Notes: generated by a model not told the origin, from the sequence alone. Shown: positions 1,870 to 17,756, counted from the stretch's first letter. The stretch: DNA of 64,000 nt from Candidatus Bathyarchaeota archaeon (GCA_018396775.1 JAGTRF010000002.1:14069-78068); one strand, 5' to 3'. Numbers and translations are program-made.

Positions 1870-3528
1870 ATGGCAGTTGAATCTGCTCCAGAACTTGCTG
1901 GAACCCCGATTTTAATATTAAAAGAGGGTACTACACGATCTAGGGGGCGAGAAGCTCAGCATGCGAATATAACTGCTGCTAAAATCATCGCTGAAACGGT
2001 GAAAAGCTCTTTAGGCCCAAAAGGTATGGATAAAATGCTTGTTGACAGCTTTGGAGATGTTACTATTACTAATGATGGGGCTACTATTCTTGATGAGGTT
2101 GATGTTCAGCATCCAGCAGCTAAAATGATGGTTGAAGTAGCTAAAACACAAGATAATGAAGTAGGCGATGGAACAACAACAGCCGTAGTATTAGCAGGAG
2201 AGCTTCTTACTAAAGCTGAAGAGCTTATCGATAAAGATGTTCACCCAACTATAATTGTTGATGGATATAGAACTGCAGCTGAGAAGGCTCTTGGATTTCT
2301 TAATGAAATAGCTATTAAAGTTGAGCCAACTGATAAAGAATTTTTAAAGAAAGTTGCTAAAGTGGCTGTAGCTAGTAAATTACTTTCTGAATATAAAGAT
2401 TATATCGCTGATTTAACTGTGAATGCTGTGCTTCAAGTTGCTGAGAAAACTCCAGAAGGCTATAAAGTTGATATTGACGATATAAAAGTTGAAAAAAAAG
2501 CTGGAGAATCTTTAATGGATACAAAATTGGTTAAAGGTGTGGTGCTTGATAAAGAAGTTGTTCATCCAGGAATGCCTAAAAGAATTGATAATGCTAAAAT
2601 AGCCTTGCTTAATTGTCCTTTAGAAATTGAAAAAACAGAAATGGATGCTAAAATAAACATAGAGACGCCAGAGCAAATGGATGCTTTCCTTAAGGAAGAA
2701 GAAAGAATGCTTAAAGAAATGGTTGAGAAAATCGCTAAAGCTGGAGCTAATGTTGTTATTTGTCAAAAAGGAATCGATGATATGGCTCAACATTTCTTAG
2801 CTAAAAAAGGAATTTTAGCTGTTCGCAGAGCTAAAGAATCAGATATGGAAAAGCTTGCTAAAGCTACAGGTGGTAGAATAATAACGAATCTTGATGATTT
2901 ATCTTCTAAAGATTTAGGTTTCGCTAAAATTGTTGAGGAAAGAAAAGTTGCAGATGATAAAATGACTTTTATTGAAGGGTGCAAAAACCCGAAATCTGTT
3001 ACAATCCTTGTTCGTGGAGGAGCTGAAAGAATAGTTAATGAAGCTGAAAGAGCCATTCATGATGCTTTATGCGTTATAAGAGACGTAGTTGTAGATCCAA
3101 GAGTTGTAGGCGGTGGAGGTGCTCCTGAAACTGAGGTAGCTAGAAAGTTAAGGCAATACGCTGAGAAGTTAGCTGGAAAAGAACAGTTGGCTGTTTTAGC
3201 TTTCGCTGAAGCCTTAGACTCTATACCAATGACTTTATCTGAAAATGCTGGTTTAGATCCGATAGATATAATCACAGAGTTAAGATCTAAACATGATAAA
3301 GGAGAGATGTGGGCTGGCGTAGATATTTTTTCAGGTAAAGTTTCTGATATGACTAAAAACGATGTTTATGAACCATTAGTTGTTAAAACTCAAGTTATTA
3401 AATCTGCAAGTGAAGCCGCAACAATGATATTAAGAATTGACGATGTAATAGCTGCTTCCAAAACTAAAGAAGAAAAGGGACCGCCAAAGGGGCCAGAAGA
3501 GAGTGGTGAAGAATTCGGAGAAACTTAA
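1870..3528 (+). CDS. ths: Thermosome subunit (group II chaperonin, CCT/TCP-1 family).
   Basis: 552 aa. GDGTTT ATP-binding motif, NDGATIL, VGGGA. AAGGAGG RBS upstream of the ATG. C-terminal G/E-rich tail. Confidence 0.95.
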
Positions 3529-4041: not shown

Positions 4042-5253
4042 TTGAAAGTTTATATGGCTGTTTGCGGAATAGGTTTAGGGCATGTAACAAGATGTGAGCC
4101 TATAGGTAGATTGTTAAAAAATAAAGGTGTAAATGTTGTTTTTTCAACTTGCTTTGAAGCTGCTAATTATTTAAGAAGAATAGGATACAATATTTTTGAA
4201 ACATTACAAATGAGTTACGCTGTAAATGAAGATGGAACTGTTGATTATAAAGCTTCTTTAGCGTATAACCCAGGTTTTTTTCATGCAATAAAACTTTCTC
4301 TTAAAGAGTTGGCTTATGAATTAAAAAGAATAGAAGAGTATAATCCTAACCTTGTTTTTTCAGATTCTAGAATGGCACCAATTTTAATAGCTAAAATGCT
4401 AGGCATACCTAACGTTTTAATGTTAAATCAATTTAAAGTAAATATTATTAATTCTAGTTTTAATAACTCTTTGATTGAGGAAGCATCATTTAAATTAATG
4501 AAGGTTTTATGGGGTGCTTCAAGCAGTGTTATTGAAGGAATTTGGAGTTTAAGTGACCAAATTTTAATTCCAGATTTACCCTACCCATATACTGTTTCGT
4601 CTAGGAACTTGGCGATTCCAAAAGCTTTTGAGAAGAAAATAAAATTTGTTGGACCTATAATCCCAATTAAATATAGCGATTTGCCTAATGAAGAAACAAT
4701 TAAGAAAGAGTTAAATATCGATGAATCTAAAATAACTGTTTACGCTGTTGTTAGCGGTCCAAAAAAAGAAAAAGCTTGGTTGCTAAATAAACTTATGAAA
4801 ATTCTTCAAGTTTTCCCTGAGAAATATGAGGTGATTCTTTCCAAAGGAGATCCTAAAGGAGATGTAACCTTAAAGAAAATTGGTAAAATTAAAGTTTATG
4901 ATTGGGTTGATGAAGAAACTCAATTTAAGCTTTTTAAAGCATCTGACATTATCGTTGGGAGAGCTGGTCATGGTGTAATAATGAAAGCTTTAGCTTATAA
5001 AAAGCCGATTATTACTATTCCGATTCCGGGTCAAGCTGAACAATATGGAAATGCTGAACGGATTGAACAGTTAAAGCTTGGAAAAATGATTAAGCAAGAG
5101 AAGCTTAATGAAGAAGCTTTGTTAAACGCTGTGGAGAACCTGCTTAAATTAAAAGATAGTAAAGAATTAAATAATGTTTTTAAAGTTTTAAACTCATTTG
5201 ATGCTGTGAAAACAATTTTAAACTTAATCTTAGAAATGCTTAATCAACAATAG
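4042..5253 (+). CDS. GT-B fold glycosyltransferase (GT1/GT28, MurG/UDP-glycosyltransferase-like).
   Basis: N-terminal Gly-rich VCGIGLGHVTRC and C-terminal GRAGHGVIMKAL...PIPGQAEQYGNAERI donor-binding motif. TTG start. Confidence 0.7.
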   Translation: MKVYMAVCGIGLGHVTRCEPIGRLLKNKGVNVVFSTCFEAANYLRRIGYNIFETLQMSYAVNEDGTVDYKASLAYNPGFFHAIKLSLKELAYELKRIEEYNPNLVFSDSRMAPILIAKMLGIPNVLMLNQFKVNIINSSFNNSLIEEASFKLMKVLWGASSSVIEGIWSLSDQILIPDLPYPYTVSSRNLAIPKAFEKKIKFVGPIIPIKYSDLPNEETIKKELNIDESKITVYAVVSGPKKEKAWLLNKLMKILQVFPEKYEVILSKGDPKGDVTLKKIGKIKVYDWVDEETQFKLFKASDIIVGRAGHGVIMKALAYKKPIITIPIPGQAEQYGNAERIEQLKLGKMIKQEKLNEEALLNAVENLLKLKDSKELNNVFKVLNSFDAVKTILNLILEMLNQQ

Positions 5254-6791
5254 CAACTTTTAATTGTTTTAACCTTTAATTCTATAGGATGCGAAATTGA
5301 AGGTAAGCCTTGTTGATACTCAAAAATTTTTTCCTCCCTTCCTTTACGCTCTATTAACCAAATAAATAGATCATAAAGCTTCCGCATTATGAAACTATAC
5401 CATTTTCCTTGAATGTAACAATCTATAATTTCTTTTGCATATTTAATATCGTGGGTTAAGCATTTCACCATTAACTCTTTTTGTAAATCTGTTAAATCCT
5501 CATATTTAAACCAGTCTTTATTTTTTAGTTTACCCATAGGAACAAAAAATAATGGAACAATCATGCTTTTAAACCAATTTAAATCCTCAACTAACTCTAT
5601 AGTTCTAATTACATCGTCATCAATTTCTTCAGGTAAACCAGTTATCAATGTGCAGGCTGGAATTAACCCATAATCATTCATTAAGCCTGCAGCTTTCTCT
5701 ACAACTTCTCGCCATTCTTCAGGCTTAAAAGGCTTAGCTTTAGCTGGCATAGCCAACTTAACTAATCTAGGTGAACCTGTTTCTATACCTATTTGAGCTC
5801 CCCACCATTTTTGATCTTCATCAATAATTATCTCTGAAACTTCTTTAAACAATTTTGGGTCAGCTGCTATAGCAGCCATACTAACATGGCTCCAGCAAAA
5901 ATTCTTCATATATTTTTTAGTTAATTTATGCAGCTCAAGAATTTTTTCTCTATTAGGCATAACTGATTTAGAACCGTAAAGCAGCGCATCTTCAGCGTGA
6001 AGAATCCCTGAAGTTATTCCACCTTTAATGTTTACCTGAAGTTCCTTCTCTATTTTATCAAGTGGATACCATCTTAAAGGCTTTAAAGTTACACTGCAAA
6101 AGTTGCATCCTCTAGGGCATCCTCGTCCAATTTCAATTAAACCATTAATCGATGGATTTTTAATCTCTGAAATCTCATTTAAGCTAGGTAAATTATGAAT
6201 GTTAACTTCAAAATAGCTTGGTAAATCTTCTCCTTTTAAAGCTTTCCTTATAAGATCACCAATAACTCGTTCAGCTTCTCCATCAACTACGCAATCTATT
6301 CCATACTCTTTTTGTTCTTCAACTCTATACTTAAATTGCCAAACTCCAGCTCCTCCTACAATTATTTTTAAGCCATGTTTTTTAGCTTGTTTAACTTCAG
6401 GCTTCATAAATAACTCTTTAAAATACTTTAATAAGTAAGGCTCACCTGTACGAAGAATTCTAGCGAAAGTTGTTGATGAAGGCCCTAAACCAAAAGGATC
6501 CATAACATGAACACATAAAACTTTAGCGTTTTTAATATATTTTTTCAAGTGATCAGGGTCAACTGTAAGCGCGTTAAAACCCTCATCTAAAAGTTTAGCT
6601 TCAATTTTTCTAAGTCCATAAGGCGCCTCAAGCGGTAAACCCCTCTTATTTTTTACTGGAGGGAAAAACATAATTTTATAAAACCATTCTGGTAAAATAT
6701 TCGGCGGAGCACTAGTAGCGAAACCAAGAAACTCTTTCCCACGATAATTACTCATTAATGTTCTATCAGCAGTAAGTATAATATCAACCAA
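5244..6791 (-). CDS. B12-binding-domain radical SAM protein (class B rSAM).
   Basis: 515 aa. CPRGCNFC (CxxxCxxC) at the centre. N-terminal Rossmann-like region consistent with a cobalamin-binding domain. Long C-terminal helical extension. Confidence 0.7.
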   Translation of the reverse strand: MVDIILTADRTLMSNYRGKEFLGFATSAPPNILPEWFYKIMFFPPVKNKRGLPLEAPYGLRKIEAKLLDEGFNALTVDPDHLKKYIKNAKVLCVHVMDPFGLGPSSTTFARILRTGEPYLLKYFKELFMKPEVKQAKKHGLKIIVGGAGVWQFKYRVEEQKEYGIDCVVDGEAERVIGDLIRKALKGEDLPSYFEVNIHNLPSLNEISEIKNPSINGLIEIGRGCPRGCNFCSVTLKPLRWYPLDKIEKELQVNIKGGITSGILHAEDALLYGSKSVMPNREKILELHKLTKKYMKNFCWSHVSMAAIAADPKLFKEVSEIIIDEDQKWWGAQIGIETGSPRLVKLAMPAKAKPFKPEEWREVVEKAAGLMNDYGLIPACTLITGLPEEIDDDVIRTIELVEDLNWFKSMIVPLFFVPMGKLKNKDWFKYEDLTDLQKELMVKCLTHDIKYAKEIIDCYIQGKWYSFIMRKLYDLFIWLIERKGREEKIFEYQQGLPSISHPIELKVKTIKSCYC

Positions 6792-6837
6792 TATTAACCG
6801 CCTCCTAATTTCTAAATAAAAAAGAAGTAAACTGGTT

Positions 6838-8271
6838 TTAATATGGAATTACAGGAGCCAACCTCGCCTCCTCCTTAAGCATCGTGTAAAATGCTTTATT
6901 ATTTATGCAACCAGGGTCTGGAGCTAAGTAATCATTAAAGTAACCATAAGCTCTTGCCCTGCACCCACCACAGTAATATCTATATTCACATGTTCCGCAA
7001 TGTCCTTTTAAAATATCTTTATTTCTAAGATCTTTTAAAACTTTAGAATTAACCCACAACTCCTCTAAATTATCACTTCTAATGTTTCCAAGTTTTAATG
7101 GAAGGAAAACGCATGGTTGAATATCGCCATTAGGTTTTATAGCTATGTAAAATCTACCTGCGCCGCATCCCCCTATAAATTCAGCTAAACTTTTAATTTT
7201 TTCCCTTGATTTAGATGAATAAAAATGGCTTAAAACTAAAGCCTCGCTTTGGCAGGATGCTTCTAAGGAAACTCTAGCGAATTGAGGCGCTGTAGAAAGC
7301 ATAGCTACATTTGAATTTTGCATTCTTTCATAAAGCATTTTTAAAAGTTCTTCTCTTTCATCAGGCGTTAAATCTAGTTCTGTAATATCAACACCTCTTC
7401 CAGTTGGAATAAAATTATAAGCCATAAACCAATCTACGCCAAGCTTTTCACATAAATCCAATATTTTAGGGATTTCTTTATAATTCAACTTAGTGATTGT
7501 GGTTGAAACTTCAACAAAAAATTCTTCAGCTATAACGTTTTTAATTCCTTCAACAGCTTTATTAAATGCTCCTGGAACACCCCTAAAATAATCATGTGTT
7601 TCAGCTACAGCTCCATCAAGGCTAATTTGCACATAATCTATTCCAGCTTCCTTCATAGCTTTAGCCTTCTCTTTAGTTATTAAGGTAGCGTTTGTAGCTA
7701 CAGCTACATAAATTCCTTTATCAGATGCATATTTAGCAAGCTTAAGAAAATCTCTTCGCATAAACGGTTCTCCACCAGAAAAAGCTAAAATTGTTATACC
7801 AAATTTATCAAGCTTATCTATTGCTTTTAAAGCTTCCTCTGTATTTAACTCATTTACTTCTGCCCCTGCATTAGCTGAGCAATGCTTACACCTTAAATTA
7901 CAAGCATTAGTTACTTCCCAAACTACTTGAAAGGGGGCCCCTGGAGTAAAAGGTTTTGTAACACCAAATAAACCTAACCCTTTAACTACGCTGCTTAACC
8001 CCCTTCTCCAATATGAGTCAGCAAAAGTCTTCTTCATCTCTTCTTCTGAAACATTAAAGCTTCTTCTCCCAATCCTCAAAATTAAGCTTAAGATTTTTTC
8101 AGCAGCTTTACATTTTAAGCAAGCATCAGCTCTAACGCCTGAGTAAAGCTCTAAACCAGCTTCCAATCTATTTTTTCCATCTTTTTCGCAATAAGTTGAA
8201 ATATTTTTTAGTAAACTTCTTGTTAAAAGATTATTAGAAATTAACTTAAATGCCCGAATTTTCCCTTCCAA
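6838..8271 (-). CDS. Radical SAM protein with a C-terminal SPASM/twitch domain and a roughly 100-aa N-terminal extension carrying 3 Cys.
   Basis: CNLRCKHC rSAM motif. C-terminal GGCGAG...C...CGTCEYRYYCGGC Cys cluster typical of SPASM peptide/cofactor maturases. Confidence 0.75.
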   Translation of the reverse strand: MEGKIRAFKLISNNLLTRSLLKNISTYCEKDGKNRLEAGLELYSGVRADACLKCKAAEKILSLILRIGRRSFNVSEEEMKKTFADSYWRRGLSSVVKGLGLFGVTKPFTPGAPFQVVWEVTNACNLRCKHCSANAGAEVNELNTEEALKAIDKLDKFGITILAFSGGEPFMRRDFLKLAKYASDKGIYVAVATNATLITKEKAKAMKEAGIDYVQISLDGAVAETHDYFRGVPGAFNKAVEGIKNVIAEEFFVEVSTTITKLNYKEIPKILDLCEKLGVDWFMAYNFIPTGRGVDITELDLTPDEREELLKMLYERMQNSNVAMLSTAPQFARVSLEASCQSEALVLSHFYSSKSREKIKSLAEFIGGCGAGRFYIAIKPNGDIQPCVFLPLKLGNIRSDNLEELWVNSKVLKDLRNKDILKGHCGTCEYRYYCGGCRARAYGYFNDYLAPDPGCINNKAFYTMLKEEARLAPVIPY

Positions 8272-8709
8272 ATTTTAAAACGCTCCGGTTAAATATACCT
8301 ATTTAACACCGAAAAATCTGAAATTTTATTTTATAAAAGAAGGTATTTAAAGCTTTCCGTGCTTTAAAAGAGATTGAAAAATAAGAGTTATCGCCTTCCT
8401 AAACCTTTTTAAAGGTTTAGCGATTTAAAGTAATGAACACTTTTACAAGAGTTTTGAATTAAGCTTCAGTTTACCTACTCTACGGTAAAGCTTTAGAAAG
8501 GCTTATAGCTGCAGATAAAACGAAAAGTAAGCTTAACGGTAAATAGCTTTCGCCTTTAAATTGTAATATGTGGATGAAAAAGAAATTTTGCAAAATGCTT
8601 GAATTCTTCATTAAAAGCATAGATTTATTTATTGAGTTTACTAAAGCTTGCTATACTGCTATTAGGAAAGCTCATTTTACCACCAATTGCATTGTAACAA
8701 AAATTAATT

Positions 8710-9843
8710 TTAATAGCTTCCAAGCAAATGGATATTTCCTATATAAACATTTCTTAAAAATTTTTTAGCGATTTTATAACAGTTTAATGCTTGAATTCTT
8801 GGTGTTATAGGTAAATCTTGCATCATAAAATCTGGGTGGAAAACTAAAAGCGAATATGGAATTTCATGGTTTAAACTTGAAATAAACTCTGAAATATTCT
8901 TTATCTCCTCTTCATCTACATAACCTGGAACCAAAAGTGTTGTAGCTGATAAAACGGGTAAATGCTCTCTTTTATTATAAAACTCTTTAGCTATAAACTC
9001 AAAGTTTTCATAAGCTTTTTTATTTGAGACTCCGCTTAAAGCTAAGCTTAAATTTTCATCGAAGCATTTTAAATCAAACTTAATGTTTCCACCGCTTTTA
9101 AAAGCTAATTCAACCGCTTCTTTAACTAAAAACTTGTTTCCACAACCATTCCACTCAAAGCAAACTCTAATTATTCTATTAGGATTTTCTTCAAGAATCT
9201 TTTTTGATGAAGCTAAAGCGAATGGAAGTTGAGGTTCAGGTGAACCGCCGAAAAAACATATACAAGAGTATTTTTCATCATTTTTAACAATTTTAGTAAA
9301 TTCGTTTAAAGATATTATTGAACCCAACTCTATATTTTTATGAGAAGCATTTTGACAAAATAAACAGTTAAAGTTGCATCCATAAAAGAATACAGCCAAA
9401 TTTTTATATCCTATTTCTGGCCCTTTAGTGTAAGTAAATTTTGGGTAGCCTACTCCTGTTCCAGCTGGGCAAAACCATGCGTTGCAGCAATTTGTAACAT
9501 GAGGATCTGGATACCAATGTAAAACTGCTTTCTCAACGTTTGATAAAGAAATTATTTTTCCATTTAAATTTCTTTTTAAACCGCAGTAGCTTCTCTCTCC
9601 GCTCCCAATTACGCATTCATTAGCGCATAAATTGCATGGAACTCCCCCCAAAGATTTAGGAGAAGTTGAAGGTAAATTGTATAAAGCTCTAACGTTTTCA
9701 TGAGTTTTCATTATTAAAGGTTTAGCTTCCTCAGGTTTTTCTTTAATGCATTTACCGCAAAGATTAAGAATGCTTGAAATTAACTCTCCTTTTTTACCGC
9801 AAAGCTTACATTCCTTATGCTTAAACATATTAAAACGAAACAT
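8710..9843 (-). CDS. Radical SAM protein with a Cys-rich N-terminal zinc-ribbon-like extension (AmmeMemoRadiSam or PFL-activase-like).
   Basis: GCNFNCLFCQN (CxxxCxxC). N-terminal CKLCG...CGKC and CNLCANEC...C motifs. Confidence 0.6.
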   Translation of the reverse strand: MFRFNMFKHKECKLCGKKGELISSILNLCGKCIKEKPEEAKPLIMKTHENVRALYNLPSTSPKSLGGVPCNLCANECVIGSGERSYCGLKRNLNGKIISLSNVEKAVLHWYPDPHVTNCCNAWFCPAGTGVGYPKFTYTKGPEIGYKNLAVFFYGCNFNCLFCQNASHKNIELGSIISLNEFTKIVKNDEKYSCICFFGGSPEPQLPFALASSKKILEENPNRIIRVCFEWNGCGNKFLVKEAVELAFKSGGNIKFDLKCFDENLSLALSGVSNKKAYENFEFIAKEFYNKREHLPVLSATTLLVPGYVDEEEIKNISEFISSLNHEIPYSLLVFHPDFMMQDLPITPRIQALNCYKIAKKFLRNVYIGNIHLLGSY

Positions 9844-9845
9844 TT

Positions 9846-10250
9846 TTGAGCAGGGAAAAAATATTTTTAAAGGAAATTATGGGCAACTTTTCTTTAATAA
9901 TAATTATTTCATACGCGGTTATATTAACTTTATTTATCCTTGTAGGAATATTAAATATTAAAGATATGAAAGTTAAAAAAAGAGATAGATGGGTTAAAAA
10001 AGATTCTATAGCGATGATTATAAGAGTATTGTTTTATGGTTTTTTAATAAGCTTTGCAATCATCGAGCTTGAAGCTTTAATTTTAATGTTTGGACGTTTT
10101 TCGCTTCAGTTTTTTGCTGGAAAAAGCTTACCTATTTATGTTTCTCGTTCTCTTTTAATTCTACCTATTCTCCCAGTTATTTTAATTGGGGTAGTTTATG
10201 CTATAGCTAAAAAGAGGGAATGGTATGAGCTTATTGATGAAGAAGAATAA
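9846..10250 (+). CDS. Small integral membrane protein (3 predicted TM helices). Translationally coupled to the AAA-Lon gene.
   Basis: Hydrophobic segments. The stop overlaps the start of 10225..12978 by 26 nt. Confidence 0.5.
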   Translation: MSREKIFLKEIMGNFSLIIIISYAVILTLFILVGILNIKDMKVKKRDRWVKKDSIAMIIRVLFYGFLISFAIIELEALILMFGRFSLQFFAGKSLPIYVSRSLLILPILPVILIGVVYAIAKKREWYELIDEEE

Positions 10251-12978
10251 TAGCGAGTATGAGTTTAAACCTTGGTGGATTCAACATCCTAAGCTTAGCA
10301 CCTTACTAAGTTTTCCATTATACGTTACAACTAGAGAGTATCGAAGATGGAGAAATGCTAAGTTAACCCCTAGAAAGCTTCAAAAATTAATTAAAGAGCT
10401 TGATAAAAACTATCCATCTAAAAGAGAAAAGCTTGTTGGAAGAGATAAAGAATATGAGCTTATAATGTCTAGCATAACATTTCATGTAGTTCAAGAGAAA
10501 TGCATAAAAGAACTGCTTAAAGATGCTTCGCCACCAAAATTTTTTATTCTTAAAGGCGCAAGTGGAACTGGAAAATCTTTGCTGGCTGAAGTATGCATTA
10601 GAGAGGGCGTTTTACATGGTATAAGAAATGGTGTAAACGTTCAACCAATTTTTGTTAAGGGACCTGAAGTTTTTGATCCTCTTTATGGGCAATCAGCTAG
10701 GAATTTAATGGCTATTTTTGATAAAGCTTTTAATACACCAAGCATAATTTTCATAGATGAGTTTGAAAGCTTCGCTAAAAAAGTGGATACAGCTAAAGCT
10801 GCAAGAGTAGCTGAAATGGAAGATTTAAGAGTTCAAAGTCTTTTTATAAACAATTTAAGAAGGCTTTTAGATACACAAACAAGAACAATTTTAATAGCTG
10901 CTACAAACATGTATGAAGCTATTAGAGAAGATATAAGAAGAAGAGCTTTTACAATAGATTTAGATCAAAACATAACTAGAGAAATGCTTTTAGCTATTTT
11001 AGCTTCAGAGCTTAAAAGCCATGATTGGACATATTTAAATCCTGAAGAAGTTATGGTAACTTTAGAGAAGGGTGTAAGTATTTATAGGCAAACGCAACTA
11101 TCCCCCTTTGATATAATTGATGCTTGCAATAAAGTTAGAGAAAAGAAAATAGCGCCTATTAGAAAAAGCCTTTTTGAAAGGTTGGAGAGAAAATTAACTC
11201 AGAAAAATGAGGTTAAATATAAAGTTTCAATAGAAGATTTTGAAGCTGTAGCGAGAGAGCTTAGAGGGTATATTGAACAAGAGAAAAGCACTGAGGTTAT
11301 GAGCGCGGTTTTAAAAATAAAACCTTCAATAACCTACGATGATGTTGGAGGATTATTTAATATAAAAGAGAAAATCTTTAAAACTATTTCTTTAAGTTTA
11401 AAGCCTGAGCTTGTAAATAAGCTTGGTTGGATACCGCCTAAAGGCTTCATTCTTTGGGGGGAACCTGGATGCGGTAAAACTCATATTTCTAAAGCTATAG
11501 CTAGAGAGAATGGCGCTGAATTCTTTTATGCTCCAGCAGCTCAACTTCTTATTAACGCTAAATGGGTTGGTGAACCAGAGAAAAATGTTAGAGATTTATT
11601 TGCGATAGCTAGAAAAACCGCTCCAAGCATAATTTTCTTTGATGAATTTGATATAATAGCTGGAAAACGTAAAGGCGACCCTGTAGGCGATAGAATAACT
11701 GCTCAAATATTAACTGAGCTTGATGGGTTGCAACCTCTTGAAAACGTTATTGTTATAGCTGCTACAAATAGGCTTGAAGCTGTTGATGAAGCTGTTTTAA
11801 ATAGATTTGAACCAAACATTATAGAGGTTCCATTACCAAGGAACGATGCTGAAAGAAAAGATATAATTAAAATTCATTTAAGACATTATGTAGAGCATTT
11901 AGATCAGGAAGTTACTATTGATAACGTGCTTAAAATAATAAAAAAACATAGAATTGTTTCCCCAAGAGTTGTCGCAGAAATAATAAGGTCAGCTAACCGT
12001 TTAAGAACTCAAGAAATTATAGCTTCTTGGGAGCTTAAAAAAGGAGATGAAGCTTATAAAAGTAAAGTTTTAAAAATGTTTCATGAGGATATAAAAAGGC
12101 TTTGTGAAGTATTAAATTTAAATGAGGAAGAGTTGATTAAAAATCATGCTGAGTTAACTGGAGAAAACTATAAGGTTAAGCTTTACCATTTTGAGAAAGC
12201 TGCTCAACAACTTGAGCAGGATATTGATAAAGAATTAATGGATGTTCAAGAAAGCGCTGTTTTTGAAGAACCTGAAACTGGCGTGGCTTATGGGCTTGGA
12301 ACAGATCCCACAGGTAGAAGAGGAGTAATACTCATAGTTGAATGTGTAATAAACCCAAATGGAAATGGAAAAACTGTTGTAACTGGCGCGTCTAAATCTA
12401 CAATTATTGGTCCAACAGCTATTGAAGATACAAGCGTGATTGAAAGCGCTGTGAATGTAATTGAATATATTAAGAAATATGTTAGAGAAAAGATTGGTGA
12501 AGAAATTTCAAAATTTGATTTTATATTTGAAGTTGTTAGCCCATTAGAGGGGGCTTCTGGATTAGGAGTAAGCGGTCCAAGCTTAGGAGTAGCCTTCAGC
12601 GTAGCAGCTGTTTCAGAGCTTGCTCAAATAGAAGTTGAATCAACGGTAGTTATGACTGGAAAAGGAGATATTAAAGGAAATATTGGTCCTGTTGGGGGAG
12701 TTGGCTGGAGAGGAGCAGGAAAATTTCTTGCAGCTATAAAAACTAAAAAAATGAAAATCAACAAGTTTTTGCTTCCAAAATGGAATTATGAAAACTCTAA
12801 AGACGAATGGGAAATTTTAATAGAAAAAAACATTAACGTCATCCCCATTCAAAAACAATTAGAAGCTTGGCTTCACTCATTTAATGTTACTGAAGAAGAA
12901 TTATTAAGAAAACTTTCTATACAGCTTAAATCTTTAAAGTTTAAATCTGTAAGCTATCCTGAAGTTAAAGAAGTTTAA
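10225..12978 (+). CDS. Tandem AAA+ ATPase fused to a Lon-type (S16) protease domain.
   Basis: AAA-1: Walker A GASGTGKS, Walker B IIFIDEFE. AAA-2: GEPGCGKT, IIFFDEFD, and SRH TNRLEAVDEAVLNRF. C-terminal SGPSLG (Lon catalytic Ser motif) and GAGKFLAA (candidate catalytic Lys). Confidence 0.75.
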   Translation: MSLLMKKNNSEYEFKPWWIQHPKLSTLLSFPLYVTTREYRRWRNAKLTPRKLQKLIKELDKNYPSKREKLVGRDKEYELIMSSITFHVVQEKCIKELLKDASPPKFFILKGASGTGKSLLAEVCIREGVLHGIRNGVNVQPIFVKGPEVFDPLYGQSARNLMAIFDKAFNTPSIIFIDEFESFAKKVDTAKAARVAEMEDLRVQSLFINNLRRLLDTQTRTILIAATNMYEAIREDIRRRAFTIDLDQNITREMLLAILASELKSHDWTYLNPEEVMVTLEKGVSIYRQTQLSPFDIIDACNKVREKKIAPIRKSLFERLERKLTQKNEVKYKVSIEDFEAVARELRGYIEQEKSTEVMSAVLKIKPSITYDDVGGLFNIKEKIFKTISLSLKPELVNKLGWIPPKGFILWGEPGCGKTHISKAIARENGAEFFYAPAAQLLINAKWVGEPEKNVRDLFAIARKTAPSIIFFDEFDIIAGKRKGDPVGDRITAQILTELDGLQPLENVIVIAATNRLEAVDEAVLNRFEPNIIEVPLPRNDAERKDIIKIHLRHYVEHLDQEVTIDNVLKIIKKHRIVSPRVVAEIIRSANRLRTQEIIASWELKKGDEAYKSKVLKMFHEDIKRLCEVLNLNEEELIKNHAELTGENYKVKLYHFEKAAQQLEQDIDKELMDVQESAVFEEPETGVAYGLGTDPTGRRGVILIVECVINPNGNGKTVVTGASKSTIIGPTAIEDTSVIESAVNVIEYIKKYVREKIGEEISKFDFIFEVVSPLEGASGLGVSGPSLGVAFSVAAVSELAQIEVESTVVMTGKGDIKGNIGPVGGVGWRGAGKFLAAIKTKKMKINKFLLPKWNYENSKDEWEILIEKNINVIPIQKQLEAWLHSFNVTEEELLRKLSIQLKSLKFKSVSYPEVKEV

Positions 12979-13481
12979 AGCTTCCTAGACATTACGTAAG
13001 CATCTTCTCCATCATGATAATAGTAAACGATTCTTTGAGCAACTTCAAAACCTAGTTTTCTATAAAGATTTATTCCTGCTTCATTAGAAACTCTAACCTC
13101 TAAATAACATTCTTTAGCTTGAGCATTAACAAGCTCTTTTAATGCTTGAGTAATTAAAGAAGTTCCTATTCCTTTCCCTCTATACTCGTTAAGAACCGCT
13201 ATTGAAACAATATGACCCTTTTTAACAAGCTTAAACCTGTTAAAATCTGAGAAACCATACTCTATTCTACACATAATATATCCAACAATTTTATCTTCTG
13301 CTTCAGCCACCAAAAAAGCTTCAGGACAATTTCTATAAATATCCATAAAAAAATTAAATGTATAATTTTCAGGGAGGCATCTTCTATTTATTTCAATTAC
13401 AGCATTTAAATCACTTGGGTTGAATCTTCTAATAATAAACTTCTGCATTGTAACCATTTTTACCAAATCCCAACTCTGCAA
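12975..13481 (-). CDS. GNAT family N-acetyltransferase (RimI/Ard1-like N-alpha-acetyltransferase).
   Basis: VLNEYRGKGIGTSL acetyl-CoA binding motif. About 165 aa. Confidence 0.75.
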   Translation of the reverse strand: MQSWDLVKMVTMQKFIIRRFNPSDLNAVIEINRRCLPENYTFNFFMDIYRNCPEAFLVAEAEDKIVGYIMCRIEYGFSDFNRFKLVKKGHIVSIAVLNEYRGKGIGTSLITQALKELVNAQAKECYLEVRVSNEAGINLYRKLGFEVAQRIVYYYHDGEDAYVMSRKL

Positions 13482-13612
13482 GCTATAACTTACATTTAAT
13501 TAAATCTTCGTTTTATAAGCTTTTAAACTAATCTTTATGTCTTTAATAATAATGTTTAAATTTTAATAAAAAATAAGTTAATATAAGATTAATTTTGTAA
13601 GGATGAATTAAA

Positions 13613-14740
13613 ATGGGTTTAAATTATTCAGAAATCGTTTACCCTTATTCATTTTCTGAATTAAAAGCTTTAGTTTCTTCTAGATTTACTGTTTTAGACT
13701 CATATATAGATGAAAGAGGTACTCCAAACTTTGTTATTTCACCTAAAGTAAACAAAGAGAATTTTAAACAAATGTCTAAAGAGTTGATGAAGCTTAACTT
13801 GATCCCATTTTTAAGGAAGAATGGTGATCGCTATGTTATAAAAGTTTTTTTGAAATTTTTAGAGAAAAGAAGGAAAAATAACATTTTAAATGTTATTCTT
13901 TTAATCGCAACTTTAGGAACAATATTTTTAGCTGGTTATTATAGTTTCATCAATACTCCTGTATTAAAAGATATTTTAATGAAGGGTGAAAATGCTTTTC
14001 TTCAAGCAGGTTTATTTACTCTCTCGCTCTTCGCTATAATTGGATTGCATGAATCAGGTCATATGATTGCTTGTAAAATTCATGGATTAGAGTTCTCTTT
14101 ACCATATTTTATTCCCGGGCCTCCCCCATTCGGGACTTTTGGAGCAATAGTCTCATTAAAATCTCCTCCAACAAATCGAGATGAGCTTTTCGATATAGGG
14201 TTTGCCGGTCCTATAGCAGGTTTTATAGCTACAACAATTGTGGCAATATTAAGTTTTAAGTTGGGTTTTCTCGTTCCTGAAACTGATGTGTCTGTTTGGG
14301 AAAAGCAAAAATTAGTTCAAAGCATAAGTTGGCCAAGATCGCCTTTACTATTTGAAGTTCTTTTACCTTTTATACGTCAAATTCCTCAAGGTTTTAGGCT
14401 TGTTTTAACTCAAATAGAATTCGCTGCTTGGGTTGGTGCTTTATTAACATTCCTAAACATTCTTCCAATATGGCAGCTTGATGGTGGACATGTTTCTAGA
14501 GCTATTTTTGGCGCTTCAAAACATAAAATCGCTTCTATAATTGGGTTAATTATATTGATTTTCTCAGGATACTGGTTTTTTGCTTTATTTCTTTTGTTAT
14601 GGATGTTTGGAGGTGGACGTGGAACAGCAGGAGCTGAACCATTAGATGATATTTCTCCATTAAGCAGCTCTAGAAAAATTCTTTATTTCCTTTCTTTAGT
14701 TATGCTTATGCTCTGTTTTATAGCTTTTCCTTCATTATAA
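13613..14740 (+). CDS. Site-2 protease (M50 family intramembrane metalloprotease).
   Basis: HESGH (HExxH) inside a TM segment. Multiple TM helices. LDGGHV motif. Confidence 0.75.
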   Translation: MGLNYSEIVYPYSFSELKALVSSRFTVLDSYIDERGTPNFVISPKVNKENFKQMSKELMKLNLIPFLRKNGDRYVIKVFLKFLEKRRKNNILNVILLIATLGTIFLAGYYSFINTPVLKDILMKGENAFLQAGLFTLSLFAIIGLHESGHMIACKIHGLEFSLPYFIPGPPPFGTFGAIVSLKSPPTNRDELFDIGFAGPIAGFIATTIVAILSFKLGFLVPETDVSVWEKQKLVQSISWPRSPLLFEVLLPFIRQIPQGFRLVLTQIEFAAWVGALLTFLNILPIWQLDGGHVSRAIFGASKHKIASIIGLIILIFSGYWFFALFLLLWMFGGGRGTAGAEPLDDISPLSSSRKILYFLSLVMLMLCFIAFPSL

Positions 14741-14790
14741 AAAATGATTTTTTTAACATAAAACAAGAAATAAAATAGATTAAATTTGGA

Positions 14791-15036
14791 GTGAGTGTAT
14801 TGAAAGAAAAATCAGCAGTTGTTTATATGCTTATAGGAACTCAAGCCGGAAAAGAACGTGAAGTTGCTAAAGAAGTGAAAAAATTTCCAGGAGTAACTGA
14901 AGCAAAAATTGTTTATGGAGAATACGATGTAATAGTTAGAATTGAGCTTAATGATTTTTCAATCTTAAGCGAAACCGTAACATTGATTAGAAGAATTTCT
15001 GGAATAGTTAAAACTGCAACTTTAATTTCAGCTTAA
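14791..15036 (+). CDS. Stand-alone Lrp/AsnC C-terminal (RAM) domain protein.
   Basis: 81 aa. VYMLIGTQAGKEREVAKEVKKFPGVTEAKIVYGEYDVIVRIEL matches the RAM-domain beta-alpha-beta-beta-alpha-beta pattern. GTG start with a GGAG RBS. Confidence 0.6.
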   Translation: MSVLKEKSAVVYMLIGTQAGKEREVAKEVKKFPGVTEAKIVYGEYDVIVRIELNDFSILSETVTLIRRISGIVKTATLISA

Positions 15037-15125
15037 ACTTTCACTTAGTTTGCTTATAACATTTTATTGAAAGGAAAGATTTAAGTAAAAGCATCTTAAC
15101 TTTAATTAATAGGGGGTTAAAAGTT

Positions 15126-15404
15126 TTGGCTTTTATTGGACCTTGGGAAATAGCTTTAATTTTAGCCATAGTTTTAATCTTATTTGGGGGGAAAAAGCTT
15201 CCTGAGCTTGCAAGATCGATTGGCGACTCAATAAGACAGTATAAAAAGGCTGTTGAAGGAGTTGAACCTAAAAAAAACGAGAGGGAAAGCATTTTAGAAG
15301 CTGCTGAAAAACTTGGTATAGATACTAGAGGTAAAAGCGTAGAAGAAATCGCTACGGAAATAACCCAGAAAATTAAGGAAGAAGATAAACAAGCAAAAAA
15401 TTAA
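15126..15404 (+). CDS. tatA: Twin-arginine translocase subunit TatA/E.
   Basis: N-terminal TM plus the FGGKKLPELARSIG amphipathic-helix motif. TTG start after AGGGGGT. Confidence 0.8.
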   Translation: MAFIGPWEIALILAIVLILFGGKKLPELARSIGDSIRQYKKAVEGVEPKKNERESILEAAEKLGIDTRGKSVEEIATEITQKIKEEDKQAKN

Positions 15405-15604
15405 AGCTGCTTATTTAAATCGCTTATAATCTGCTTAATTTTTCTTGAAGCTTGAATTTCAACCTCTTCAGGTTCCATGCTAAGTTTTCTTCCGCAATTA
15501 GGGCAAACTCCATTATATCTTTTAACTGTTTCAATTGGAGGTTCAGGTTCAAAACCTCTATATAATATAGTGCCGCAACGCGAGCAAACTGTTTCTTGAG
15601 GCAA
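15401..15604 (-). CDS. Small zinc-ribbon protein.
   Basis: CSRCG...CPNCG Cys pairs. 67 aa. Confidence 0.5.
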   Translation of the reverse strand: MPQETVCSRCGTILYRGFEPEPPIETVKRYNGVCPNCGRKLSMEPEEVEIQASRKIKQIISDLNKQL

Positions 15605-15789
15605 GCTTATCCACCAGAATTCTTCTAAGTTTACTTCTAAAAAGCTATGTAAATTTAACCTTTTTTAACCTTCTTTAATTATTTTTGTAAAAATTGATTT
15701 ATGTAAAAAAACCTTTATTATAAGCCGGCTCTGTATTTTTAAGAAAAATTTATTTCTTATTCTTCTTAAAATTTATTGGAGGTGAAATT

Positions 15790-16110
15790 TTGCTTCAAGA
15801 ATTATATCTAGCGCCTGTAACTTTCAATTTTAAGGTCAGAAGAGGAGCTAAGCAAATTTGCATTGAATGCTTTTGGTTAGGGGCAGGTTCAATTGAAATA
15901 AAAATTCAAGCCTTAAATAAAGTTTATACAGAAAAAGATATGAAAGTTATTGAAAAAACAACAATACATGCATCAGGTTTAACTGTAGAATATCAATGCT
16001 ATAAAAAATGCTTGCTTTCAATACCTTCTATAGCTGAAGATGAATTTTGGAGATTAGAGTTAACATTATTAGGTGTTTCTGAATATCAGCTAGCTATTGA
16101 AATCTCATAA
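15790..16110 (+). CDS. Hypothetical protein.
   Basis: 106-aa ORF with no recognised motif. First of three consecutive same-strand ORFs. Confidence 0.35.
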   Translation: MLQELYLAPVTFNFKVRRGAKQICIECFWLGAGSIEIKIQALNKVYTEKDMKVIEKTTIHASGLTVEYQCYKKCLLSIPSIAEDEFWRLELTLLGVSEYQLAIEIS

Positions 16111-16130
16111 AAGCTTCTGCGGTAAAAGCG

Positions 16131-16490
16131 ATGAAAATAAATGTTTCATGCAATCTTAAAGCTTTTAGAAAATTTTTAATACTAAATGTTTGTCAAAGCT
16201 TTATTCCAAATGAATGGAAAGTTAATGATGAAATTTTCCCTGAAAAAATTGGGAAAGAAGGAAGCATAATTATTGAAGCAAAATATAAAGAAACTGTTGG
16301 AGTTATTAAAGGAATGAAATTTAGTAAAGTGAAGGAAATTTTAAAAATAGTTTATAACTCTAAAAGTGGTAGAACCAAGTTAACTTGGGTTAAAGTAAAA
16401 GGGAATGAAGGTAAATTAATTGGAGACGCAAGCGTTAACAGCGTTGTTAACCTAGCTTTAGCAGGAATTATTAAATCAGTTGAAGCTTAA
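16131..16490 (+). CDS. Hypothetical protein.
   Basis: 119-aa ORF. 3-nt gap to the next ORF. Confidence 0.35.
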   Translation: MKINVSCNLKAFRKFLILNVCQSFIPNEWKVNDEIFPEKIGKEGSIIIEAKYKETVGVIKGMKFSKVKEILKIVYNSKSGRTKLTWVKVKGNEGKLIGDASVNSVVNLALAGIIKSVEA

Positions 16491-16492
16491 AA

Positions 16493-17161
16493 TTGTTTAG
16501 AAAAAACTTTTTGCTATCTCTTTTAAAGCAAACTAAAGAAGATAAAGCTGTAAAACCACTTGATGGTTTTAGCAAGGCTGAAATTAATGAAGCTTGCAAA
16601 AAAGGTTTAATAGAATTTAGCGATGGAAAAATATTTGTTAACTCTTTAAACCGTTTAAAGATCGCCGTTGAAGCTATAAACCTTGGCGTTGATTTTGAAA
16701 AAGTTTGTCGATTGCTAGATTGGAAGGAATTTGAAGAATTCAGCTCTATAATTCTCGAGCATAATGGTTATTTAACGTTTAAAAAGTTTATTTTTAAAGA
16801 AGGAAAAGGTAAAAGATGGGAAATTGATGTTTTAGGCGTTAAAAACTCAGTAATTTTATGTTTAGATTGTAAAGGATGGCGTTATGGTTGGTATAAAAGC
16901 AAGCTTTCTTCAGCTGCTGAAAAACATTTTGAAAGAGTTAAAGCTTTAAGTAAAGAATTGCCTAATTTAGCTTTAAAATTAAGGATTAAAAGAAATGAAA
17001 GCTTTATAATTTTGCCCTTATTAATCACTTTAGCTGATGTTTCATATAAAAATATTAATGGCTCGCTTATAGTTTCAATTTTAAGGTTTAAAAGCTTTCT
17101 TTATGAGTTGCCTGAAATAATTTATAGCGAATCTAACTTATTAATTAAAGCTTTAAGCTAA
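16493..17161 (+). CDS. Hypothetical protein with a possible PD-(D/E)xK nuclease-like core.
   Basis: EIDVLGVK...ILCLDCKGW fits a D...(D/E)xK signature. Weak. Confidence 0.35.
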   Translation: MFRKNFLLSLLKQTKEDKAVKPLDGFSKAEINEACKKGLIEFSDGKIFVNSLNRLKIAVEAINLGVDFEKVCRLLDWKEFEEFSSIILEHNGYLTFKKFIFKEGKGKRWEIDVLGVKNSVILCLDCKGWRYGWYKSKLSSAAEKHFERVKALSKELPNLALKLRIKRNESFIILPLLITLADVSYKNINGSLIVSILRFKSFLYELPEIIYSESNLLIKALS

Positions 17162-17162
17162 T

Positions 17163-17756
17163 TTAAACTTGAAATCTATATTCAAAATTATAATAGTTTC
17201 TTGTTTTTTTAGCTAAACTATAGCCAATTATTAATCCAGCTGCTAAACCTCCAAAATGAGCAAACAAATTTACACCTGCTCCAGCATTTATTAAAAACAA
17301 GTAAAATGAATAAATTAAAGCGCTTAAAATAGGTTGATTCATAGTTTTTCTCATATACATTATTGAGGCGCCGAAAAGACCGAAAATAGCTCCTGAAGCT
17401 CCAACTGATACAACATTAGAGCCCATTAATAAAGTTAACAAGTTGCCTATAAAACCTGAGCTAAAATATATAAATAAGTAAATTTTCTTCGAAAATAATT
17501 CTTCAGCTTTAAAACCGAAAAAAGCTAAAAATAATGAGTTTCCTAAAACATGAAGAAGATTAGCGTGAACAAATATTGAAGTGAAAAGCTGCCAGAGCCA
17601 ACCTTCATAAACAAATAGATTGTATTGGCCATAAATTGCAAGCAACTCATAATTTATAATTAAAATGTTTCTGCTTGAGAAAGCTAGAAAAGCGTAAATT
17701 ATTAAATTAATTGTAATTAACAGTGAAGTTAGCTTTCCTAATATTTCAAGAGACAA
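17163..17756 (-). CDS. Rhomboid family intramembrane serine protease.
   Basis: GASGAIFG (GxSG) and a downstream His in AHFGGLAAG. 6 TM profile. Confidence 0.75.
   Translation of the reverse strand: MSLEILGKLTSLLITINLIIYAFLAFSSRNILIINYELLAIYGQYNLFVYEGWLWQLFTSIFVHANLLHVLGNSLFLAFFGFKAEELFSKKIYLFIYFSSGFIGNLLTLLMGSNVVSVGASGAIFGLFGASIMYMRKTMNQPILSALIYSFYLFLINAGAGVNLFAHFGGLAAGLIIGYSLAKKTRNYYNFEYRFQV

Follow-up and report, generated by a model that had tools for sequence, protein, structure and literature searches.

What is encoded by two overlapping genes in a contig of Candidatus Bathyarchaeota archaeon (GCA_018396775.1 JAGTRF010000002.1:14069-78068), where the larger gene appears to join two AAA+ ATPase modules to a Lon protease domain and the smaller specifies a membrane protein? 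Reviews name LonB as the sole membrane-bound ATP-dependent protease described in archaea, which are devoid of FtsH (PMC4343526 and PMC9263693); PMC9569914 divides the Lon family into LonA, LonB, LonC, and LonBA, all of which have just one ATPase, of the Lon type. The window, by which we mean the whole stretch of 64,000 nucleotides (nt) that was analyzed, has a G+C content of ~32%; all positions refer to it, and the gene pair lies on its + strand. The small open reading frame (ORF) spans 9846..10250 (134 amino acids [aa] when read from a TTG) and the large one 10225..12978 (917 aa from an ATG), with an overlap of 26 nt and the large gene in the +1 frame. We find that the large protein carries a Cdc48-like pair of ATPase modules ahead of a Lon domain and is consistently accompanied by the membrane protein, and we consider it probable that the two genes encode the subunits of a hexameric, membrane-tethered, ATP-dependent protease in which double AAA rings feed a Lon chamber.

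The ATPase part of the large protein resembles Cdc48 and not Lon. Pfam identified the AAA domain (PF00004) twice (E, 9e-53), and the two modules, D1 and D2, are 31% identical to each other over a 141-aa alignment (E, 4e-11); D1 is therefore a genuine AAA module and does not represent a Lon N-domain that has degenerated. The ATPase, pore-loop, and catalytic motif residues (listed in Table 1) are invariant or nearly so in 71 homologues down to 30% identity. In an alignment to VAT, the classical RPGR motif is incomplete in D2 of the family, without its "RP." The NCBIfam model that matched best was that of the CDC48 subfamily (TIGR01243; 227 bits against a cut-off of 803), and a single continuous alignment paired aa 102-676 with model positions 210-723. 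The next matches were the PAN, FtsH, and CdvC models, the Lon models matched the C-terminal domain only, and every family score (LonA, LonB, FtsH, and CDC48) was far under its cut-off. The best solved relatives of the ATPase part are VAT and the D1-D2 tandem of p97/Cdc48, and an AlphaFold model made from the 71 homologues (mean predicted local distance difference test [pLDDT] score of 80.7) aligned over ~640 model columns to p97 D1-D2 in Foldseek (E, 1e-29). As judged by these family and fold comparisons, the ATPase is a Cdc48/p97-like tandem of classical AAA modules, not a pair of duplicated Lon-type modules. At its N terminus, where the Pfam scan returned no CDC48_N or CDC48_2 match, the protein has a 97-residue basic helical region (13 K/R versus 4 D/E in residues 13-66) in which W17, W18, and P49 are conserved. 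The Lon domain takes up the C-terminal part of the protein, which ends in ...SYPEVKEV and has no HbYX motif.

The C-terminal domain, at aa 678-877, scores 47.4 bits with Pfam Lon_C (PF05362; cut-off, 21.1 bits; E, 2.2e-12) and has the catalytic motifs SGPSLG (783-788) and GGVGWRGAGKFLAA (824-837). A phmmer comparison with the protease domain of Archaeoglobus fulgidus LonB (E, 1.2e-8) aligned S786 with Ser509 (GDS) and K833 (AGKFLAA) with Lys552 (TQKIEAA), and both residues were invariant in sets of 14 and 71 sequences. PMC9569914 gives the number of residues that separate the catalytic Ser from the Lys as invariably 42 in LonA and LonB, and in LonB an Asp precedes the Ser. This exact spacing is not found here: the gap is 46 residues and contains a family-specific insert, G-W-R-G, of which R829 and G830 are conserved, while the residue before the Ser is Pro (G-P-S, the LonA-like A-type). 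The helical linker that leads from D2 into the protease is co-conserved with it in distant relatives, whose matches to a query of aa 556-917 begin at query residues 2-8. The sequence-only reading of this locus had proposed two complete AAA+ modules and, after them, a Lon S16 domain that keeps the Ser of GPSLG and the Lys, and both proposals hold up. Its description of a tandem-AAA Lon fusion is likewise right, with the refinement that the modules are of the Cdc48 type and not a duplicated Lon ATPase.

Unlike the small protein, with its three hydrophobic segments, the large protein has no membrane segment, its highest Kyte-Doolittle 19-residue window (1.38) lying at the catalytic helix. The start of the small gene is probably the ATG at 9879, giving 123 aa, with the TTG at 9846 as an alternative (134 aa), because an independent gene call (P0121) is 100% identical at 123 aa and close relatives are 123-124 aa long. 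The small protein is predicted to have three transmembrane (TM) helices, N-out/C-in topology, and an acidic cytoplasmic tail; the orientation follows from a strongly basic loop (KVKKRDRWVKK) directly after TM1, which the positive-inside rule would place in the cytoplasm. It matched no family in Pfam, NCBIfam, or PADLOC, and a word-indexed search with the 123-aa sequence gave nine matches, all in close Bathyarchaeia relatives; the wider homology described here is drawn from neighboring genes and fused proteins. We retrieved the loci of homologues by exact look-up and compared nine in which the two genes are split. An upstream membrane-protein gene adjoins the large gene in all nine, including those from the 37% and 30% identity tiers, and in seven of them the genes overlap by 20 to 26 nt: Bathyarchaeia (two lineages, namely the window's own clade and one with a large protein 68% identical), Nezhaarchaeota, a Sulfolobales metagenome-assembled genome, Methanomethylicaceae, and Hecatellales. 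The other flanking genes vary by lineage, so the anchor gene and the large gene form a conserved unit.

The same membrane module is part of the large protein in Asgard archaea. The homologues from Odin-, Hod-, and Promethearchaeota are ~100 aa longer, and their extra N terminus is the 3-TM anchor module; the anchor is 39% identical to the Odin protein P0021 (E, 1e-16), with colinear modules. In these proteins the tail ...YELIDEE runs straight into ...LYGFKPWW..., the start of the ATPase, so that the segment that ends the separate anchor (its sequence is given in Table 1) becomes a covalent linker. The tail pattern K..xY[ED]LIDEE is kept in 7/7 split core loci as well as in the fused proteins. 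One fused gene is present in the complete Odinarchaeum yellowstonii genome, and AlphaFold predicts helices at 8-35, 42-78, and 91-112 of the fused Odin protein with good confidence. The proposal in the sequence-only reading that a separate, overlapping gene supplies the membrane segment of the large protein is thus supported by the adjacency of the genes at nine of nine split loci and by the fusion of the same module in Asgard archaea, and its small ORF with the overlap is real, though the start is probably at 9879 and not at 9846. Adjacency together with fusion in some lineages, which would mark two subunits of one complex, is what the sequences display.

Anchors of other lineages can be longer. 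The protein has 257 to 273 aa in Nezhaarchaeota (L083:5205-6026), Sulfolobales (L084:5211-6020), Methanomethylicaceae (L087:4223-5026), and Hecatellales (L089:2253-3026). Three of these four begin with an N-terminal signal or TM segment and a ~140-aa extracytoplasmic domain before the same 3-TM module; the Hecatellales gene call begins without such a segment. The ectodomain has no Pfam match and contains a conserved [CI]P[GA]N[IV][ST] motif with an N-glycosylation sequon. The Bathyarchaeia and Asgard forms have no ectodomain.

In the membrane-tethered protease that we propose, the large subunit would form a hexameric double ring on a Lon protease chamber, arranged in three tiers (D1, D2, and Lon). 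The acidic tail of the anchor (WYELIDEEE) would grip the basic N-terminal region containing PWW, the proposed docking site, and hold the D1 pore towards the membrane. Proteins in or near the membrane could then be seized at their exposed tails by the aromatic pore loops (Y154 and W447), threaded through D1 and then D2 by ATP hydrolysis, and cut by the Ser786/Lys833 dyad inside the Lon chamber. Both proteins would be made from one mRNA by translational coupling, with the start codon of the large gene and a Shine-Dalgarno-like motif lying inside the end of the anchor gene. These steps are modelled on Cdc48/VAT, FtsH, and Lon, and the sequence prerequisites of an ATP-dependent AAA+ protease (Walker A/B, pore loops, arginine fingers, and the Ser-Lys dyad) are present. 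The function may be that of a quality-control or regulatory protease and, by analogy, the pair could be a functional counterpart of FtsH or LonB and a second archaeal membrane AAA protease beside LonB.

Several points weigh against this proposal. We infer ATPase activity, proteolysis, hexamer formation, and the contact between anchor and ATPase from sequence, and a role in membrane-protein quality control is argued from analogy; the AlphaFold models are monomers and carry no information on assembly. D2 retains one of the two classical arginine fingers, and the Lys is shifted by the 4-residue insert relative to all characterized Lons, so catalysis could differ. In three distant AAA-AAA-Lon relatives (P0146, P0153, and P0165), soluble charged N-terminal extensions of ~190 to 290 aa replace the PWW region; membrane tethering may therefore not be superfamily-wide, and the membrane-tethered form may be one branch of a wider superfamily. 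A more far-reaching version, which we advance tentatively and hold to be somewhat doubtful, is that of a hitherto unrecognized third class of archaeal membrane ATP-dependent protease, broad in TACK and Asgard archaea, in which a Cdc48-type double-ring extractor is wired to Lon and held by a dedicated anchor subunit. Such a machine would combine extraction and degradation, in the manner of endoplasmic reticulum-associated degradation, and partners with an ectodomain would link intracellular proteolysis to extracellular events.

Several other explanations were considered. If the Lon domain is not a protease, the complex would act at the membrane as a bound unfoldase or segregase of the Cdc48 type, and its C-terminal domain would only bind substrates or partners, comparable to the Lon-like domains of RadA/Sms and ComM. 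The displaced Lys and the modest Lon_C match (47 bits) point this way, and protease-free, membrane-bound type-II AAA proteins are said to occur in Sulfolobus; PMC3493965 names their group, MBA. However, Ser786 and Lys833 are invariant in 71/71 sequences, as are G784, P785, G824, G825, and G830, a strict retention of residues that an active dyad predicts, and the insert that displaces the Lys is itself conserved; we therefore regard a nonproteolytic domain as unlikely. An ordinary archaeal LonB, or a member of another known Lon subfamily whose "first AAA" is a degenerate N-terminal domain, would account for a C-terminal domain that is true Lon S16 with LonB protease domains as its best solved relatives, but there is next to no chance that this is the answer. 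The Lon models match the protease part only (TIGR00764 LonB, 53.3 bits versus 516.6; TIGR00763 Lon, 54.1 versus 608), both ATPase modules are classical AAA with their best PDB matches in VAT and p97 D1-D2, D1 has the full set of motifs, the ATPase contains no TM insertion, and the Pro before the Ser and the longer Ser-Lys spacing depart from LonB. A third possibility is an anti-phage or conflict system in which an AAA ATPase and a protease act as in IetAS and the membrane protein is sensor or effector. The large protein does find IetA as its best PADLOC match (E, 5e-44) and an anti-phage ATPase, IteA, in NCBIfam (E, 3e-37), and the partner proteins differ in their extracytoplasmic domains. These defense matches nevertheless span D2 only and, at 129 bits where the cut-off is 510, reflect the similarity that AAA modules share in general; PADLOC has no match for the anchor, and the pair stands in housekeeping contexts, with no mobile-element or defense neighbors at the loci examined. 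The named close homologues among the matches listed come almost only from TACK and Asgard archaea and are not scattered over unrelated groups, and we consider a defense function highly improbable.

The remaining alternative concerns the junction of the two genes: both ORFs might be a single gene that yields a fused TM-AAA-AAA-Lon protein by programmed +1 ribosomal frameshifting, or the split might be a sequencing error. The end of the small gene reads GAA TGG TAT GAG CTT ATT GAT GAA GAA GAA TAA, and the ATG of the large gene (10225) spans its TAT-GAG codons. A single +1 shift near GAA GAA TAA would restore the fusion, a fused form does exist in Asgard archaea, and the split falls at exactly the same position in all TACK lineages. 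The split is, however, seen in seven independent assemblies from six groups, which rules out a sequencing error, and the geometry of the junction recurs in those seven loci from six TACK groups as a 20- to 26-nt overlap with an ATG or TTG at the same position. This +1-frame start codon is kept despite differing codons of the small gene (GAT-GTC in Sulfolobales versus TAT-GAG elsewhere) and is TTG in one lineage. A purine-rich GGAGG-like motif usually lies 5 to 9 nt upstream of the large-gene start in split lineages, strongest where W-R-G codons encode it; the fused Odin gene has no such motif. The codons leading up to the stop vary (GAA-TAA, GAT-TGA, GAA-TGA, GAG-TGA, GAT-TAG, and GAC-TGA), so there is no conserved slippery site, and folding of the junction RNA against shuffled controls revealed nothing unusual (z = 0.02). 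Taken together, the kept start codon, the GGAGG-like motif, the lack of a slippery site, and the unremarkable RNA structure make translational coupling of two polypeptides on one mRNA the better reading; a single fused product is quite unlikely in the split lineages.

Set beside known systems, the proposed protease pair shares parts with several and coincides with none. LonB (MEROPS S16.005; Thermococcus, Archaeoglobus, and Haloferax) is likewise a membrane-associated archaeal ATP-dependent protease with a C-terminal Lon Ser-Lys domain. LonB carries its membrane anchor as an insertion within its one Lon-type AAA+ module (PMC9569914), whereas here the AAA modules number two, both classical, and the anchor comes from a gene of its own or, in Asgard archaea, from an N-terminal fusion. 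LonA has an N-domain with a helical HI(CC) region and one AAA+ module, neither of which applies here, and no LON_substr_bdg or N-domain match was found. Canonical LonB and LonA are ruled out by the family scores and domain tests. With FtsH, the membrane AAA protease of bacteria and organelles, the family has in common an N-terminal membrane anchor, sometimes with an extracytoplasmic domain, a classical-clade AAA module (FtsH models match D2), a fused protease and, in its presumed role, the extraction and degradation of membrane proteins. FtsH, in contrast, couples a single AAA ring to a zinc metalloprotease of the M41 type where this family has two rings and a serine-lysine Lon domain, with the anchor separate in TACK archaea; no Peptidase_M41 match was found, and TIGR01241 scored 145 bits against a cut-off of 600. 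The FtsH layout of TM anchor, AAA, and protease seems to have been made from different parts. Cdc48/VAT/p97 are the top match by both sequence and fold, with a colinear D1-D2 tandem and aromatic pore loops in both rings. Cdc48, which in archaea works with the 20S proteasome, onto which its C-terminal HbYX motif docks according to PMC3493965, differs in its N-terminal double-psi-barrel/beta-clam N-domain and separate protease, whereas here that N-domain is missing, the protease is fused, and the complex would be tethered. ClpA/ClpC-ClpP also stack two ATPase rings on a self-compartmentalized serine protease, but they are soluble, belong to other AAA+ clades, and use a separate ClpP 14-mer with a different fold.

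The MBA proteins deserve separate mention. Serek-Heuberger et al. (2009) reportedly described Sulfolobus MBA1 and MBA2 as archaeal type-II classical AAA proteins that are membrane-attached and without a folded N-domain. They are said to have their own single N-terminal TM helix and no Lon domain, which would distinguish them from the present family. No Sulfolobus or Saccharolobus isolate protein was among the best 120 matches listed for the large protein. PMC3493965 lists the archaeal AAA groups as Vps4, MBA, Mm0854, AMA, PAN, and CDC48, with MBA as a group of its own.

Proteins of this architecture are widespread. Among the matches listed, there were ~85 of them (some partial) at 57 to 91% identity, plus more distant tiers, and the closest homologue of the large protein was 91% identical and came from Candidatus Bathyarchaeia. 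A profile-free search of 1.84 billion representatives with the linker and protease (aa 556-917) as the query returned 33 clusters at E ≤ 1e-10. Of these, 19 are full-length (858 to 1,261 aa), with a match that begins where the linker begins, indicating that they share the layout. Besides the TACK and Asgard groups given above, Marsarchaeota and Nitrososphaerales are represented among the named members. A search of genome contigs with the family alignment selected generic AAA peptide patterns and found ordinary Cdc48, FtsH, and PAN loci at ~30% identity. The source labels of all database copies are "AAA family ATPase," "SpoVK/Ycf46/Vps4 family," or "hypothetical protein." In full-text literature searches, no account came up of a protein that joins a Cdc48-like double AAA to a Lon domain, which is no proof of absence elsewhere, and neither the Lon subfamily review (PMC9569914) nor the archaeal AAA review (PMC3493965) mentions such a protein.

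The family is not a member of LonA, LonB, FtsH, or Cdc48, because one defining feature of each fails, and the Cdc48-like D1-D2/Lon chimera common to TACK and Asgard archaea is, on these comparisons, apparently an undescribed AAA+ protease design. It would add a new construction, a Cdc48-like double ring with Lon and a detachable anchor, to a short list of AAA+ protease designs, and as a natural chimera it shows classical AAA motors and Lon chambers to be modules that can be exchanged for one another. It would also show a Cdc48-type motor at the membrane in the lineages nearest to eukaryotes, and the split (TACK) and fused (Asgard) forms offer a ready pair for the study of anchor-unfoldase coupling. 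The architecture is surprising, well supported, and widespread in TACK and Asgard archaea; its function is what we infer.

Table 1. Coordinates in the window of the two genes, their junction, and the predicted domains of their products
Feature	Coordinates	Strand	Basis and details
Candidate membrane-anchor subunit, 123 aa	9879..10250	+	ORF; identical gene call P0121; hydropathy with three segments; homology to Asgard fused N-termini
Predicted TM helix 1 (aa 4-26)	9888..9956	+	Kyte-Doolittle peak 2.97; counterpart of helix 8-35 in the fused Odin protein as modelled by AlphaFold
Predicted TM helix 2 (aa 43-73), with conserved DS.A...R..F[YF] motif	10005..10097	+	Hydropathy, alignment; corresponds to helix 42-78 in the fused model
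Predicted TM helix 3 (aa 89-110)	10143..10208	+	Hydropathy, alignment; corresponds to helix 91-112 in the fused model
Conserved, predicted cytoplasmic tail KKREWYELIDEEE	10209..10247	+	Conserved in split core loci and fused proteins
Gene junction	10214..10250	+	Shine-Dalgarno-like GAGGGA 10214-10219; large-gene ATG 10225; 26-nt overlap; TAA 10248-10250, then TAG
Putative catalytic subunit, 917 aa	10225..12978	+	Basic N-terminal helical region, AAA D1, AAA D2, helical linker, Lon S16 domain
N-terminal basic helical region (aa 13-97), with near-invariant PWW motif	10261..10515	+	Conservation, charge, AlphaFold helices 17-62
AAA module D1 (classical clade)	10516..11214	+	Walker A GASGTGKS 111-118 (K117); pore loop PLYGQS 152-157 (Y154-G155); Walker B IIFIDEFE 174-181 (D178-E179); sensor-1 N228; Arg cluster R238-R240
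AAA module D2 (classical clade)	11302..11904	+	Walker A GEPGCGKT 412-419 (K418-T419); pore loop KWVG 446-449 (W447-V448-G449); Walker B IIFFDEFD 469-476 (D473-E474); sensor-1 N515; single Arg finger R527
Helical linker from D2 to protease (aa 561-677), with conserved NYK.RLYHFEKAA segment	11905..12255	+	AlphaFold secondary structure, conservation
Lon (MEROPS S16) proteolytic domain	12256..12855	+	Ser786 at nt 12580-12582; Lys833 at nt 12721-12723; insert GWRG before Lys

Distant members of the superfamily vary the plan further. P0146, P0153, and P0165 retain the classical RPGRFDR arginine-finger motif in D2 (RAGRIDR in P0165). P0141/P0284, a thaumarchaeal member from Nitrososphaerales (1,120 aa) that was also found in Tara ocean data, carries an additional C-terminal BSP domain (PF04450; E, 9.5e-15) with an HExxH motif and thus combines two AAA modules and a Lon domain with a second putative peptidase ("peptidase of plants and bacteria"). 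Inteins usually occupy functionally critical sites; in P0160 (1,261 aa), an intein (Intein_splicing and LAGLIDADG_3) sits in D2 right before the sensor-1 TN motif (VVIAA|S...HN|TNRKD).

The genomic context of the pair is housekeeping or proteostasis related, not defense related. On the Hecatellales contig (L089:1-6996), the pair lies inside a ribosomal-protein operon in the order L3, L4, L23, a 159-aa ORF, anchor, AAA-Lon, L2, and S19. Two thermosome (Cpn60/TCP-1) genes directly follow the pair in a Bathyarchaeia-related lineage (L090:5846-8745), and in the window a thermosome gene (1870-3528) is found ~6 kb upstream; the surroundings may be a proteostasis neighborhood. Three consecutive radical-SAM genes, one with a SPASM domain, occupy 5244-9843 on the − strand and diverge from the anchor gene, with start codons ~35 nt apart, an arrangement kept in the closest Bathyarchaeia contigs (L081 and L082). 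On the 3′ side of the pair (12975-17756), a GNAT acetyltransferase gene is convergent with the protease gene and shares the last 4 nt of the latter. Next come genes for an M50 site-2-type protease (13613-14740), an AsnC-type regulator, TatA (15126-15404), a NERD-domain protein, and a rhomboid protease (17163-17756), a grouping of membrane-protein-processing genes that was seen in the Bathyarchaeia lineage and no other.

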